Origin: Hadesarchaea archaeon
GTDB taxonomy: Archaea > Hadarchaeota > Hadarchaeia > Hadarchaeales > Hadarchaeaceae
Assembly: GCA_030601665.1 (NCBI GenBank)
Contig: JAUWBP010000014.1
Coordinates: forward strand, 1 to 14,161
Length of the DNA: 14,161 nucleotides
Reading direction: 5' to 3'
The first letter of the stretch is position 1, and each line of letters opens with the position of its first letter. Positions 5,886 to 9,448 of the stretch are shown here, one piece after another. The notes below the pieces were generated by a model. The model did no database searches. It was not told the DNA's origin and saw only the letters and a program-made list of their open reading frames with translations. A program made the position numbers and the translations under genes.

Positions 5886-6401
5886 CTACTCGAATACAAC
5901 TGTGATGTTTTTATTAGTTAGTTTCGTTAAGAGGGCTTGAATCCCTTTGACGTTAGCAGGAAGGCGTTTCAAGTGCGGGCGCGGTACCCGTACACGATGT
6001 TCTTCCTTTCCATCCGAGTAGAGCACGTTGACGCCCAGAACCTTCGCAGGGGTGAGGATATCTTGGGCCAGTTTGCGGGTTTGGGCCCCTTCTTCAATCA
6101 AGCGGATTCTCGCCTGGAGCTGATTTTCGAGCTCCCGAACAACTTTGCCCCCCCGCCCAACGACGAAACGTATCTCTCCCCTCCCAACCATCAGGACAAT
6201 CAAACCGCTACTGCTAATCGCATGTTTGAAGTTTATTTTTTCCAACCCTCGGCGTTTTTGCGCTATCTCAAATAAAGTTTTAGAAATTTTAATATCCAGT
6301 TCGGAGATTCTACCTTCTTTTAGCTTGTTTTCACATCCTTGGCAGAGGATACCGCTCCTGAGGCACACGTTGCAGATAGGTGTTCGCAAACCCAAGCCCA
6401 A
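5886..6401 (-). CDS. Zn-ribbon plus KH-domain RNA-binding protein (NusA-like KH fold)
   Basis: 171 aa. The N-terminus has CNVC....CQGC. A KH GxxG loop sits in VVGRGGKVVRELE, followed by a second KH-like half. Start is TTG. It lies 7 nt upstream of aspS on the same strand. Confidence 0.6.
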   Translation of the reverse strand: MGLGLRTPICNVCLRSGILCQGCENKLKEGRISELDIKISKTLFEIAQKRRGLEKINFKHAISSSGLIVLMVGRGEIRFVVGRGGKVVRELENQLQARIRLIEEGAQTRKLAQDILTPAKVLGVNVLYSDGKEEHRVRVPRPHLKRLPANVKGIQALLTKLTNKNITVVFE

Positions 6402-6450
6402 TAGCCCTTCGTTCTGGCGGTTTAAGGGCTTTCAGACTGGGCAAGAGAGC

Positions 6451-6465
6451 AAAAAAAATAAAAAA
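6451..6465 (-). terminator. Oligo-T archaeal terminator signal downstream of alba
   Basis: Plus-strand aaaaaaaataaaaaa reads T6-A-T8 on the minus strand, starting about 15 nt after the alba stop at 6480. Confidence 0.45.
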
Positions 6466-6479
6466 GAGCGCGGGAGGGT

Positions 6480-6830
6480 CTACTTAGCCCTTCCAAGCAC
6501 TATTTCGACGGTCGAAACATTGGCCGTGCCGCGCTCGCCTTGAACCTCTTCAGTCCCAATCAAAATGTTTTTCACTTGGAGCCCCTGCAGGAATCGATTT
6601 TTGGTAATCTCCGCAACATCGACGGCCCTGCTGATCGCTTTGCCTCGTGCCTTCAAGATGACATCGCCGGAACCCATGTTGAACTGCGTTATCACTGCAA
6701 GCACGTAGTTCATCACGGGCTTTATCCCGATAAAAACCACGTTCTCAGCACTTGGTTTTCTCTTCTCGACAGGTTTCTCTTCAGTTACGGCAGGTTTCTC
6801 TTCAGTTACGGCAGGTTTCTCTTCAGCCAT
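6480..6830 (-). CDS. albA: DNA/RNA-binding chromatin protein Alba with a repeat-containing N-terminal extension
   Basis: The core [52 protein letters not shown]...VSTVEIVL is the Alba fold signature. I prefer the ATG at 6830 ([25 protein letters not shown]...), which has GGGAGG about 8 nt upstream. The track ORF extends to 6914 with non-Alba sequence. Confidence 0.85.
6770..6826 (-). repeat. 21-bp perfect tandem repeat (2.7 copies) inside the alba 5' end, encoding EEKPAVT heptads
   Basis: caggtttctcttcagttacgg occupies 6770..6790 and is repeated exactly at 6791..6811. A partial third copy lies at 6812..6826, and a degenerate copy just upstream at about 6755..6769. Confidence 0.9.
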
Positions 6831-6881
6831 TGTACCTTGCCTCCCTTTGTTTTTTAGACAATTCTCTCTATCTTCGGCCTT

Positions 6882-6896
6882 CATAAATACCTTTTG
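6882..6896 (-). promoter_or_regulatory. Candidate BRE/TATA (AAAAGG-TATTTATG on the minus strand) for alba
   Basis: The reverse complement of 6882..6896 reads aaaaggtatttatga. It lies about 53 nt upstream of the ATG at 6830, leaving room for a leader that carries the GGGAGG Shine-Dalgarno. Confidence 0.35.
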
Positions 6897-7164
6897 GGGG
6901 TCGAACCAAGGCACGAAAAGGTTAAATTATAACTTTTTGATGTTTTTCTGAACTCTAACAGTCAATATCACCAATAATTCCTCATTTTGACAAAATATCC
7001 CTTTATAAGCTCCCGTTCGGCGTGGTCTTTGTTTTTAGGGGAGATTCGTTTTTCAGATTGCCCGATTTTGGACTTGAAAGATTGGCAAGTTGTAAAAAGT
7101 TAAATTTTTACTTTGTAAAGCTTAGCATTTGGCGTGATTCTTCATGTTAAAGATGAGGAAGTGA

Positions 7165-7572
7165 CTAACGCCGTCGTGGGACTTCCTTTGTAAGCTGTAC
7201 CATTCGCTTTTCGATCCTGTCCCGCAGCTCATCCATGTTTCCTTCGCCGCGAGCCAGCGTGACGTAGTCGAGCATGTCGTCTACCATGAGCTCGGCGGTT
7301 TCGGCTTCGAGGATTCCCGCGTAGACAGCTAGCTCGAGCGTGTAAAACGAGCGCATGATAGCGTCACGCCCCCTCCACCAGCGCTTCCAGGCCCCAGGCC
7401 TCTGAATTCGGAGCTTCTCGGCGAGCTCCTCAAAGGTCGCGCCCTCGCTCCAGTAGTGAAGGAGCATGGTTCTGAGCGTTTTTTCGTCTAGGTGGGACCT
7501 CTCCAGCAGCGCGCGGGCGAGCAAATTCTCGCGAAGCCATTTTTCGGCTCGGACGAACTCCTCTCTTGACAT
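7165..7572 (-). CDS. Small DNA-binding protein with a sigma-70 region-4-like helix-turn-helix and a C-terminal helical domain (function unknown)
   Basis: 135 aa. LLERSHLDEKTLRTMLLHYWSEGATFEELAEKLRIQRPGAWKRWWRGRDAIMRSF follows the sigma70_r4/ECF pattern (L.ER.R.V..L.Y.EG.S..EIAE.LGIS.GTVK.R..RAR..L). A strong GGAGG lies 6 nt upstream of the ATG at 7572. Confidence 0.65.
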   Translation of the reverse strand: MSREEFVRAEKWLRENLLARALLERSHLDEKTLRTMLLHYWSEGATFEELAEKLRIQRPGAWKRWWRGRDAIMRSFYTLELAVYAGILEAETAELMVDDMLDYVTLARGEGNMDELRDRIEKRMVQLTKEVPRRR

Positions 7573-7630
7573 TTGTCCTCCATATGTTTCCCTTTTTTGG
7601 AAACAAGATTAAATACCTATTGGAAAGGAG

Positions 7631-8509
7631 TCACCTTAGGAATGGAAAAGCTCGTTTTAGGGCTGAGCGTTTGTTTGCTGCCTTTACAATGCGCGCGTCG
7701 ATCGGCACATCCATCTCCGCAGCATGGTGAATAGAGTTGCTCGCGGCCTTCAAGGCCAACCTCGGGACTCCCTTGCTGAATTTGTAGAGCGATTTAAATC
7801 CACTTGGGGTCAATAAACCGCCGTAGTTGGCGCATCCAGCGGTTCTTAGGCGGAGTTCAAGTAATTCCTTGAGGTTTTTCCTGTTCATCGGCCTTAGCTT
7901 GGAATGAACTTGTATGCGGTCAAGTAGCGCGGGCACCTCGGCTAGGAATCGCCGCATCTGTTTGAGCTCACCGTTAAGTAAAATTGAGATATTTGGGATG
8001 TCGGACAGCACGCGCAGGAATTCACTAACCTCGACCACGTCTGCGCCGCTCTCGGGGACGTCGTCAATGATCACCGCCAGCCGCTCCTGGTGCTCATGTG
8101 GCCATCGGCGCAGGATTTCGAAGAGGCTCGCTTGGTCTTTATTGGCGTCCAGCTCCAGCCCCAAGATTATCGCGCGCAGCAGCTCGTCGGCAGATTTGTA
8201 CGTGGCGCCGTGGATGAGGATGGGCAGGACGTGTTTTGAAGGATCGGGTGCGGTTAGGCTTTCATCCCTCAGTGAGGCGGCCAAGAACTTGCAGGCGGTC
8301 GTTTTGCCCATTCCCAGCGCGCCCGTAAGGACGCCGATCTTACCCTCAGACAGCAACCATTTGAGCTTGCGCAGGTCACCTTTTTGAAATGGGGCGAATG
8401 CATCCACCGAGGGTAGTTCGAGATTGAATGGGTCGCCCTGCATCCCCCAACGCTGAAGGTAGCTCTCAAAACGCTCGTCGCGGCCGATTTTTTCCTCGAA
8501 TGTGGTCAT
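7631..8509 (-). CDS. AAA+ ATPase of the ExeA / TniB / Orc1-Cdc6-like clade (AAA_22-like)
   Basis: 292 aa. Walker A GALGMGKT is at 8300..8323 and Walker B LAVIIDDV at 8060..8080. The N-terminal GDPF motif and the SKGVPRLALKAA sensor-2-like motif resemble ExeA-type ATPases. Its ATG overlaps the upstream gene's TGA (ATGA at 8506..8509). Confidence 0.78.
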   Translation of the reverse strand: MTTFEEKIGRDERFESYLQRWGMQGDPFNLELPSVDAFAPFQKGDLRKLKWLLSEGKIGVLTGALGMGKTTACKFLAASLRDESLTAPDPSKHVLPILIHGATYKSADELLRAIILGLELDANKDQASLFEILRRWPHEHQERLAVIIDDVPESGADVVEVSEFLRVLSDIPNISILLNGELKQMRRFLAEVPALLDRIQVHSKLRPMNRKNLKELLELRLRTAGCANYGGLLTPSGFKSLYKFSKGVPRLALKAASNSIHHAAEMDVPIDARIVKAANKRSALKRAFPFLR

Positions 8510-9306
8510 CTCGCTACCTTCACCTGCAGTTCAAACGTTCCATTTTTACTCTTCAGGTAACCGCGAGCGCTCATTCGCTCACAAAATGTCGTCGTGAGCG
8601 CCTCCGGGCAACGGACACGGGAGGCGAGATCTTTTGGGGTGAAGGTTTTTAACACAATAGCTGCCGAGAGAAGGTCTCCGAAAACGGTGCGTTGAGCTAA
8701 TCCAGCAGGTGTGAGCGCGTCGAGGATGGCGTGACGAGGGGCTTCTGTTATCTTTGGAGTGACGGGTGCTGGCCGAATCTCTTCCTTTTTCGTTTTTTCT
8801 GGCTTTGGGACCGTTATTTTCGGAGATATGGGCACTTCGGGCGTTATTTTACGATTTTGGACCTTTGGAGGGGCCCTATGTGCTTCTTGGTGGCATTTCT
8901 GGCAAAGCGTGACCAAATTATCGGGATCGTTCCGGCTCGTTCCGTCTCTATGATGTACTTCGAGTAGCTCTTTCCCACCACATTTCGAGCAAGTGTAGTC
9001 ATCTCTGATAAGAGTAGCTCGTTTTACAAGCTCCCAATCATCTCGTTGGTAGGAAAAGACGTAGCTTAAGAAGTGTGAAAGGTGTTCATCTTGTGGGAAG
9101 GTAGGCTGAGGGGACGACGGAGGCGAAACTACGGACGGTTTTTCCAGCAAACGTTTTATTTCACTCTCAGATATCCTCCTTTGACCCCCCTCTGGACGCA
9201 CGACTTTGATTTTTCCTTCTTTATCCCACCGTCTGATCGTGTTTGGGTGTACCCCAAGTAAGGTGCACGCTTCCTTCATTGCATAGAACTTTTTCAACTC
9301 TGCCAC
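8506..9306 (-). CDS. Multidomain nuclease: N-terminal MerR/excisionase-type HTH (IS607-recombinase-like), central HNH endonuclease, C-terminal winged-helix-like domain
   Basis: 266 aa. The GTG start at 9306 has AGGTGA 4 nt upstream. The HTH is MKEACTLLGVHPNTIRRWDKEGKIKVVRPEGGQRRISESEIKRLL. The HNH is CSKCGGKELLEVHHRDGTSRNDPDNLVTLCQKCHQEAH at 8878..8991. Pro/Lys-rich linkers contain PKIT repeats. The C-terminal segment FTPKDLASRV....ERMSARGYLKSKNGTFELQ looks wHTH-like. Confidence 0.8.
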   Translation of the reverse strand: MAELKKFYAMKEACTLLGVHPNTIRRWDKEGKIKVVRPEGGQRRISESEIKRLLEKPSVVSPPSSPQPTFPQDEHLSHFLSYVFSYQRDDWELVKRATLIRDDYTCSKCGGKELLEVHHRDGTSRNDPDNLVTLCQKCHQEAHRAPPKVQNRKITPEVPISPKITVPKPEKTKKEEIRPAPVTPKITEAPRHAILDALTPAGLAQRTVFGDLLSAAIVLKTFTPKDLASRVRCPEALTTTFCERMSARGYLKSKNGTFELQVKVAR

Positions 9307-9364
9307 TACTTCACCTTTTTTAACAACTCTTCACTTCTCCTAACAAATTAAGTTTTAGTTTTCC

Positions 9365-9372
9365 TTTAAATA
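9365..9372 (-). promoter_or_regulatory. Candidate TATA box (TATTTAAA on the minus strand) for the three-gene cassette
   Basis: Plus-strand tttaaata at 9365..9372 lies about 60 nt upstream of the GTG at 9306. It abuts the 10-bp perfect palindrome tagttaacta at 9371..9380. Confidence 0.4.
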
Positions 9373-9448
9373 GTTAACTATTCATGACTACTCCTGACTG
9401 CAATTAAGGAATTTCTGACTAAAGCTAACAAAATGTGGTTAACAAAAA

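Follow-up and report, generated by a model that had tools for sequence, protein, structure and literature searches.

A phylum-wide operon of an AAA+ ATPase and two putative DNA-binding proteins in Hadarchaeota

Gene organisation of the locus

The stretch of DNA studied here (14,161 nt, hereafter referred to as the window) derives from contig JAUWBP010000014.1 of Hadesarchaea archaeon. Between the chromatin gene alba and the hydrogenase-maturation hyp genes it carries three co-directional genes on the minus strand, labelled P1, P2 and P3, which are the subject of this work. An earlier interpretation made from the letters alone (the sequence-only reading) considered this trio to be a candidate defence or mobile-element module. 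The three open reading frames (ORFs) that it had listed were all recovered at the same positions:

8506..9306, minus strand: P1, 266 aa, GTG start
7631..8509, minus strand: P2, 292 aa, AAA+ ATPase of the ExeA/TniB/TnsC clade (Pfam AAA_22, PDB profiles)
7165..7572, minus strand: P3, 135 aa

The 4-nt ATGA overlap between P1 and P2 (8506..8509), the GGAGG motif ahead of P3 (7577..7581, 5 nt 5' of its ATG) and a TATA-like box 5' of P1 (CTATTTAAA, 9365..9373, approximately 63 nt upstream), all pointed out previously, were borne out. The overlap is unchanged in all canonical loci where both ends could be read and differs in two divergent ones, L011 and L138. The trio had also been described as bracketed by AT-rich flanks, with a left spacer of 250 bp. 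The AT-richness stands (GC content of 0.37-0.40 vs about 0.53 in the genes), but the length of the left spacer does not: Alba proteins of relatives begin with MAEEKP..., by which the alba start is almost certainly ATG 6830 and not GTG 6914. With this start, the spacer between P3 and alba is 334 bp (6831..7164).

Distribution and conservation of the trio

The alignment of the ATPase was scanned over one genome per GTDB species and the gene order was mapped with tblastn. The genome scan returned 35 loci, all in Hadarchaeota, with the order PHP/hypE – P1 – P2 – P3 – alba – KH – AspRS – GGR – EndoQ being constant where the contig reaches. The chromosomal place of the trio is the same for all Hadarchaeota sampled, and its divergence goes along with that of its neighbours: identities to the window of P2, P3 and the C-terminal domain of P1 correlate with those of hypE, AspRS and PHP (Pearson 0.80-0.96; 0.90-0.96 for the divergence of the trio), and mean identities of the trio are comparable to those of these neighbours. 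Homologs of P1, P2 and P3 form smooth identity gradients, and the named ones all come from metagenome-assembled genomes (MAGs) of Hadesarchaea/Hadarchaeota. An empty hypE-alba junction was not seen in what was a small sample, as hypE-anchored sampling of metagenomes returned mostly non-Hadarchaeota HypE and two informative loci, both with the module.

These data contrast with the defence-island reading, since the locus is the same throughout, the conservation is housekeeping-like and no presence/absence polymorphism was seen; the sequence-only reading had itself named such conservation at one locus as an argument against its proposal, and for the trio this is what was found. The mobile-element reading likewise fails on the fixed position in all 35 genome loci plus the metagenome loci and on the lack of recombinase genes and attachment (att) repeats. 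The earlier remark that no integrase or transposase is present holds for the window and the loci alike, and terminal repeats or a conserved flank repeat were not found there either; the window has no tRNA genes. A virus-like module had been considered as well; the neighbours of the trio are cellular housekeeping genes, and no relatives of P2 or P3 were detected in 2.9 million IMG/VR contigs or in GenBank phages. In plasmid collections P3 gave nothing and P2 matched only three bacterial megaplasmid “ATP-binding proteins” (27% identity), while matches of P1 to viral contigs were solely through about 40 residues of generic HTH (helix-turn-helix). Two further proposals fared better. The trio is a functional unit, as its genes stay with one another in all relatives, including locus L138, where an inversion has occurred. 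Furthermore, the combination fits no named system: PADLOC returned domain-level matches only, and the literature searched contained no description of it (nothing relevant was found there, and a mention of AAA_22 with HTH concerned unrelated ABC transporters).

In the rearranged locus (L138:1761-3914), the P1-like gene and P2 are on the opposite strand and divergent from P3, with PHP still adjacent. The P1-like protein (223 aa) differs in its N-terminal HTH but shares the C-terminal winged helix; P2 (309 aa) follows after an 8-nt gap in place of the overlap, and the palindrome described below stays with P3. That the trio is still together after this inversion suggests P3 to be more than a neighbour.

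A divergent module from a hydrocarbon metagenome (L011:1052-2571; P2 45% identical) is without P3 and lies in an unrelated context of EF-1beta, AsnC and his operon genes. Its ATPase is extended N-terminally by about 80 aa containing four CxxC pairs (zinc ribbons), and the ATPase partner is the C-terminal winged helix only, behind a basic disordered N-terminus. A regulator gene of the AsnC/Lrp family is convergent and directly 3' of the module in several lineages (L008:11345-11836, L137:3907-4422 and L011:2619-3065) and does not occur in the window. It should be added that one MAG, CSMAG_2688, contains two hypE-trio regions (L034 and L037, with P2 84% and 59% identical to that of the window, correspondingly), which most likely represent a mixed bin rather than paralogs.

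Domain architecture of P1 and P2

The domain architecture given for the trio by the sequence-only reading was correctly called, as assessed with Pfam, PDB profiles and AlphaFold models. P1 comprises the following domains:

9139..9285, minus strand: N-terminal MerR/BldC/Xis-type winged HTH, residues 8-56 (Pfam, Foldseek)
8869..9093, minus strand: HNH nuclease domain, residues ~72-146 (Pfam, motif)
8509..8745, minus strand: C-terminal winged helix, residues 188-266 (AlphaFold, Foldseek)

The AlphaFold model of P1 (predicted local distance difference test, pLDDT, of 85.5) has three folded domains with disordered linkers between them, and a disordered Pro/Lys-rich linker precedes the C-terminal winged helix. 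The N-terminal domain, identified in Pfam as HTH_17/MerR (E 7e-12), was superposed by Foldseek on BldC (template modelling (TM) score 0.78, root-mean-square deviation 1.7 Å, 36% identity) and also on Pukovnik Xis and RacA. As the NCBIfam BldC score of P1 (40.5) is under the cutoff of 77, the domain is a fold-level relative and not a member of the BldC family. The C-terminal domain matched winged helices of CAP, MarR, IclR and Z-alpha in Foldseek.

The HNH domain (PF01844, E 9e-7) reached 29.4 bits vs the Pfam cutoff of 21.4. Its motif is intact in the window (C106, C109, H118, H119, N130, C135, C138, H139 and H143), and with four Zn-binding Cys, catalytic His, Asn and terminal His the domain would qualify as a nuclease of the ββα-metal HNH type. 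The N-terminal HTH and C-terminal winged helix are present throughout the alignment of P1 homologs, whereas the HNH segment varies. Among 37 distinct loci in the alignment, the HNH was intact in 17, catalytically degenerate in seven and absent in 13, L030 being counted with the latter. In degenerate versions the HH pair is changed to KE, QE, YR, HR, HY, HK or HP and the terminal His is often gone, the Zn cysteines being retained. With 20 of the 37 lineages having a dead HNH or none, as judged by these motifs, the nuclease is dispensable.

P2 matched Pfam AAA_22 with E 3e-11 (44.1 bits vs cutoff 27). Among solved structures, TnsC of Tn6677 is the best match (E 7e-5, residues 49-253), followed by Cdc6, and its only PHROG match was 296, a MuB-type “DNA transposition protein” (E 3e-13). 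TIGR03015 gave 44 bits, far under the cutoff of 324.5. The closest relatives outside Hadarchaeota are bacterial ExeA/MshM proteins with 24-30% identity, which are encoded in PilMNOPQ/secretin operons. Family-invariant residues include Walker A (G66-x-G68-K69-T70), Walker B (D149-D150), sensor-1 N179, R198 and sensor-2 (G247-x-P249-R250). With Walker A/B, sensor and Arg residues intact, P2 has the fold characteristic of the TniB/TnsC/MuB clade. In one relative (L046:6001-6875), P2 is divided between two frames, with tblastn matches at 6001-6417 and 6402-6875 and an extracted ORF of only 164 aa, and this represents either a frameshifted pseudogene or an error of MAG assembly.

The variability of the HNH, together with the winged helix standing alone in L011, points at a conserved core of winged helix and ATPase (plus P3), and not of nuclease and ATPase. 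By alignment, the invariant core consists of the P1 C-terminal winged helix, P2 with its intact catalytic site and P3.

P3 and its candidate operator

Features related to P3 are as follows:

7318..7440, minus strand: sigma-70-region-4-like HTH of P3, about residues 45-85 (alignment, model)
7399..7401, minus strand: codon of P3 R58 (window), specificity-linked residue by covariation
7585..7605, minus strand: palindrome TGTTTCC-AAAAAAG-GGAAACA in the P2-P3 spacer, candidate P3 operator
7608..7615, minus strand: TATA-like box TATTTAAT, immediately upstream of the palindrome

P3 is the best-conserved of the three proteins (mean column identity 63%), and its model is all-alpha, with seven helices and a helical C-terminal half (pLDDT 78). 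A deep profile search in 1.84 billion representative proteins gave 13 hits, one of which was a spurious Ig-repeat protein. Weak matches to Sigma70_r4 were obtained for five of 27 P3 members. The divergent member P0270 scored 27.7 bits vs the cutoff of 24.1.

The palindrome is placed between the TATA-like box and the Shine-Dalgarno sequence of P3 (7577..7581), in a spacer with a modal length of 61 nt across loci. Its consensus is T(G/A)(T/C)TTCC-N7-GGAA(A/G)(C/T)A, with a 7-nt spacer between arms. It is present in a single copy in each of 34 loci containing the P2-P3 spacer, and no perfect-arm copies were found elsewhere in 369 kb of loci. The palindrome comes in two forms, both symmetric: 22 loci have TGTTTCC/GGAAACA and 11 have TACTTCC/GGAAGTA. 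Every alignment column of P1, P2 and P3 was scanned for association with the palindrome variant. The sole perfect column with few residue types was P3 residue 58, which directly precedes the predicted recognition helix. All TGT loci have Arg or Lys there, and all TAC loci have Gln. Residue 58 was also the only position changed in 11 of 11 nearest-neighbour contrasts, which included pairs 82%, 78%, 75% and 72% identical, and in 122 homologs it was occupied by R (74), Q (34) or K (14) and nothing else. Moreover, all five out-of-sample predictions were right (L057 R/TGT, L135 Q/TAC, L136 Q/TAC, L137 K/TGT and L138 R/TGT), bringing the overall agreement between residue and variant to 38 of 38 loci. 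Pairing of arginine with guanine and of glutamine with adenine is classical for contacts of side chains with bases.

Exchangeable head of P1 and its promoter boxes

The upstream part of P1 and its promoter behave differently from the rest of the trio and comprise:

~8737..9448, minus strand: exchangeable head cassette of about 0.7 kb (promoter boxes, N-terminal HTH, HNH and linker)
9320..9431, minus strand: P1 promoter region with four A-boxes (box search, coding strand)

P1 proteins with HNH share an N-terminal HTH of type A (…HPNTIRRWDK…RPEGGQRR…), and those without it all share type B (…CTKTIQRWDK…RTPGNRR…). When the window (A) is compared with L016 (B) at the nucleotide level, hypE is 75-85% identical; the similarity breaks down at the hypE stop and is back at 72-90% from approximately P1 codon 190 on. 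The tree of the N-terminal HTH is incongruent with trees of the P1 C-terminal domain, P2 and P3, which agree mutually and in which A and B operons are interleaved. Identity of A vs B HTH domains is flat, 46-49%, at P2 identity of either 50% or 80%, while A-A and B-B identities track that of P2. Further head types were seen in L057, which has its own repeats, and in L138. On the strength of these comparisons, P1 heads are seen as ancient interchangeable cassettes, replaced as a block between lineages.

The type of promoter boxes follows the type of the head. Loci with head A have on average 4.4 A-boxes ([TA][TGA]GTTA[GA]) per 130 nt of coding strand vs a background of 0.09, and no B-boxes; loci with head B have 3.4 B-boxes ([TGA][TGA]GACA[TA], of GGACA/TGACA type) vs a background of 0.15. 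The enrichment is thus 49-fold and 23-fold, correspondingly, and strand-specific. Boxes of both head types are spaced by 10 or 20 nt and occupy fixed positions, which are -20, -40, -74 and -105/-115 for A and -7, -17, -27, -55 and -65 for B; in L040 they form a fourfold tandem 21-mer. In the window, the four A-boxes (TTGTTAA 9320..9326, TTGTTAG 9340..9346, TAGTTAA 9374..9380 and TTGTTAG 9425..9431) flank the TATA-like box of P1 (9365..9373) on both sides. Box clusters are essentially restricted to the hypE-P1 spacer, with none upstream of hyp, PHP and hycI in the 369 kb of loci, and where an insertion splits this spacer, clusters are found at both ends.

Head-to-tail binding to phased direct repeats in variable number is known for BldC and Xis, and the match to their fold makes such binding of the boxes by the P1 HTH likely. 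The case is weaker than that of P3, given the physical linkage of boxes and HTH.

Individual lineages have insertions in the hypE-P1 spacer (L029:2868-4945, L008:8007-9200, L019 and L020). The one in L029 contains, on the opposite strand, two genes for paralogous proteins with membrane anchors, each about 280 aa long, and the one in L008 is about 1.2 kb without long ORFs.

A weak repeat at the flanks of the trio, TTTCTGA..CTAACA, had been brought up by the sequence-only reading. Both sites do exist; as an att-like element boundary, the pair was rejected. The upstream copy is already gone in near-identical strains, the motif is absent from all other relatives, and CTAACA is the reverse complement of TGTTAG in an A-box, with a chance match making up the remainder.

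Other features of the window

Rfam and tRNA scans of the window found nothing. The alba N-terminal extension (6750-6830, minus strand) contains the tandem peptide EEKPAVT twice, followed by EEKPVEK, and is missing or different in relatives such as L008. The AT-rich P3-alba spacer (6831-7164) contains a 30-nt imperfect direct repeat (6916-6945/7094-7123, 77% identical) and TATA-like sequences. At 560-1903 on the plus strand, a protein of 447 aa is encoded with an N-terminal membrane anchor, many tandem calcium-binding-type repeats DxDxDG(L/I)xDxxE and a C-terminal zinc-metalloprotease motif HEVGHALGLEH. Downstream of AspRS, one relative each has a gene with a LAGLIDADG homing-endonuclease domain and a PIN/MazE toxin-antitoxin pair (L137:6813-7417 and L136:6338-7011), which indicates that selfish elements insert near the region, though not inside the trio.

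Discussion

On balance, we favour with modest confidence the explanation that the trio is a phylum-specific, vertically inherited operon of Hadarchaeota encoding a doubly autoregulated, DNA-anchored AAA+ complex, and that it is neither a defence island nor a mobile element. In the proposed mechanism, P1 and P2 would be made in a fixed ratio by translational coupling, as their ATGA overlap suggests. The P1 HTH may bind the 10-nt-phased boxes head-to-tail across the TATA-like box and the predicted transcription start, and P1 would thereby autoregulate P1-P2 by polymerising over them. A dimer of P3 is predicted from the covariation to bind the palindrome via its sigma-r4-like HTH, with residue 58 reading base 2/3 of each half-site (Arg/Lys with G and Gln with A). 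The position abutting the TATA box is the usual one for operators of archaeal repressors; this placement of the palindrome implies negative autoregulation, and P3 would repress its own gene from there. Repeated switches of specificity, in which binder and site changed together, point for both binders to what is probably essentially a single target in the genome for each. By analogy with the partners of MuB, TnsC and IstB, the P1 winged helix could tether or load the ExeA/TnsC-like ATPase on DNA. In lineages having head A with an intact HNH, including the window, the anatomy of P1 suggests that the complex could additionally nick or cut DNA.

Several points weigh against this explanation. The assignments of DNA binding all rest on covariation and position. 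P3 of the window has no Pfam match at E<0.1, staying below the threshold of Sigma70_r4 (PF04545), and Foldseek found no significant match of its fold among solved structures in PDB. The link between box and HTH types may partly reflect their linkage in one cassette and not recognition. Diversification of head specificity resembles that of immunity or incompatibility modules of mobile elements. Viruses of Hadarchaeota are hardly sampled, so that absence from virus collections is weak evidence. Furthermore, the palindrome might form an RNA hairpin in a read-through transcript, with an unremarkable stability (z = -0.32); a pure hairpin role is disfavoured, because it would not predict the link with residue 58.

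Among other explanations, we regard as unlikely, albeit worth serious consideration, that the trio is what remains, in domesticated form, of an ancient DNA-processing module of transposon- or virus-like kind that was fixed in the ancestor of Hadarchaeota. It might have been an HTH-nuclease with an AAA+ helper, as in IstA/IstB of IS21, A/B of Mu or TnsB/TnsC of Tn7, or else a small-terminase-like HTH-HNH protein. The relatedness of P2 to TnsC and MuB would suit such an origin, as would the excisionase/IS607-type HTH of P1 joined to a nuclease, its matches to small-terminase PHROGs 4581 and 57, the ATGA overlap, the putative binding of HTH to several phased repeats (compare IstA/MuA at element ends) and the series of intact, degenerate and lost HNH, reminiscent of a decaying selfish nuclease. 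What we observed, however, is a trio that keeps its position throughout the phylum and diverges in step with its neighbours; DDE or serine transposases, terminal repeats, target duplication and a conserved flank repeat were all missing, as were copies in viruses or plasmids; moreover, P2 is nearest in sequence to ExeA/MshM and not to TniB/IstB. The same fixity bears on an anti-virus defence system that has become fixed, with P1 as sensor/effector nuclease, P2 as ATPase switch and P3 as controller similar to restriction C-proteins, which we consider very improbable. The logic of nuclease, NTPase and regulator does fit, a small putatively autoregulated HTH protein has a palindrome overlapping its promoter, head specificity diversifies, and PADLOC gave domain-level matches to mad1 (HTH, 3e-12), ZorE (HNH, 1e-10, 39 bits) and, weakly, mad8 (4e-3). 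Nevertheless, PADLOC found no system-level match, NCBIfam ZorE gave P1 24.6 bits vs the cutoff of 600, and P2 is not of the ABC/AAA_15 type. The locus is identical amid housekeeping genes in all sampled species and evolves at the rate of its neighbours, and the presumed effector is dead or missing in most lineages, while P2 and P3 are strongly constrained.

Boxes and palindrome could also be centromere- or iteron-type sites of a cis-anchored chromosome maintenance system, partition- or replication-initiation-like, in which P1 and P3 serve as adaptors and P2 as the NTPase. ParMRC, TubZRC, SegAB and iteron replicons do combine an adaptor on phased direct repeats at its own promoter with an NTPase. 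The cis sites of the trio are confined to a single locus and co-evolve with their binders, the C-terminal winged helix fits with an Orc/Cdc6-related AAA+, and the operon is single-copy, phylum-wide and adjoins the chromatin gene alba. We still rate this explanation as quite unlikely: to our knowledge, no AAA+ of the ExeA type takes part in segregation or initiation, intergenic regions are short (141 and 58 bp) with no obvious unwinding element, the orientation of genes does not switch at the window locus, and simple autoregulation accounts for the same sites. Little probability is likewise given to a combined version, in which a Hadarchaeota-only maintenance machine would act at boxes and palindrome and the HNH head cassette would be a homing-type selfish allele spreading by recombination. 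Finally, the trio might be a transcriptional regulatory cassette for the adjacent hyp/PHP/hycI genes of hydrogenase maturation. The trio stays beside PHP/hypE even in loci with a changed downstream context (L010, L039, L042-44 and L138), and two of the three proteins appear to be of a sequence-specific HTH type. This is highly improbable in our view, because operators of either type were confined, within the 369 kb of loci, to the promoters of the trio itself, the repeated switching of specificity points at single targets, and the outlier L011 retains the winged helix-ATPase pair in an unrelated context.

Finding a nuclease, an ATPase and an HTH protein encoded side by side is not enough to call a defence system. 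A false lead has been removed and replaced by a defined, previously undescribed phylum-wide operon in an uncultivated archaeal lineage. The pairs of P3 residue 58 with half-site and of P1 head with box are directly testable predictions of DNA recognition. They are a natural case of joint changes of specificity, several times over, in a transcription factor and the one site it targets, and of a cassette of promoter and DNA-binding domain swapped as a block within an otherwise vertically inherited gene. If it is true that the ATPase complex acts in chromosome maintenance, this would be a new use of the ExeA/TnsC clade of AAA+ proteins.

Comparison with known systems

As in IS21 (IstA/IstB), Mu (A/B) and Tn7 (TnsB/TnsC-TniQ), the gene of a protein with an N-terminal HTH, putatively binding repeated sites, overlaps in the trio with a directly downstream AAA+ gene of the TniB/TnsC/MuB/ExeA clade. 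Unlike these elements, the trio has no DDE transposase or element ends, its HNH nuclease is optional, its chromosomal position is fixed, its inheritance is vertical, and a third, putatively autoregulated HTH protein is present. P2 resembles ExeA/GspA/MshM (COG3267) in its length, AAA_22 domain and TIGR03015-like region. The bacterial proteins are, however, encoded together with PilMNOPQ/secretin, whereas loci of Hadarchaeota are without secretin, pilus or peptidoglycan-binding genes and the partners of P2 are DNA-binding proteins. The N-terminal domain of P1 shares its fold with BldC, Xis and RacA, and with BldC/Xis also direct repeats phased by one helical turn; in contrast to all three, the HTH of P1 is part of a larger chain with an optional HNH and another winged helix, and it is coupled to an ATPase.

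The logic of HNH and NTPase is shared with Septu, Zorya II and MADS, the HNH of P1 resembling ZorE and IscB and its HTH resembling mad1. Nonetheless, unlike PtuA of Septu, P2 is of the AAA_22/ExeA type, with no match to AAA_15, to PtuA (Pfam, PADLOC) or to PtuB (PADLOC); unlike the PtuB effector, the HNH of P1 is not conserved across lineages. No ZorA/ZorB was found in the window or loci, only the HNH core matching ZorE. Unlike defence islands, the trio is neither variable nor island-borne, and other genes of Septu, Zorya and MADS are absent.

ParMRC, TubZRC, SegAB, AspA-ParB-ParA of pNOB8 and C-proteins of restriction-modification systems represent autoregulated operons in which a small site-specific DNA-binding protein, encoded together with an NTPase, acts on repeats or a palindrome at its own promoter, as is proposed for the trio, and co-diversifying specificity of protein and site is common to the trio and to partition and C-protein cassettes. 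The trio differs from partition cassettes in being without the NTPase fold of ParA, actin or tubulin, and we know of no AAA+ in partition or C-protein cassettes. The trio belongs to none of Septu, Zorya, MADS, ExeA-secretin systems, transposons or terminase modules; by analogy, the module would be most similar to pairs of AAA+ proteins and DNA-binding partners of the TnsC/MuB/IstB type, combined with autoregulated adaptor-NTPase cassettes.

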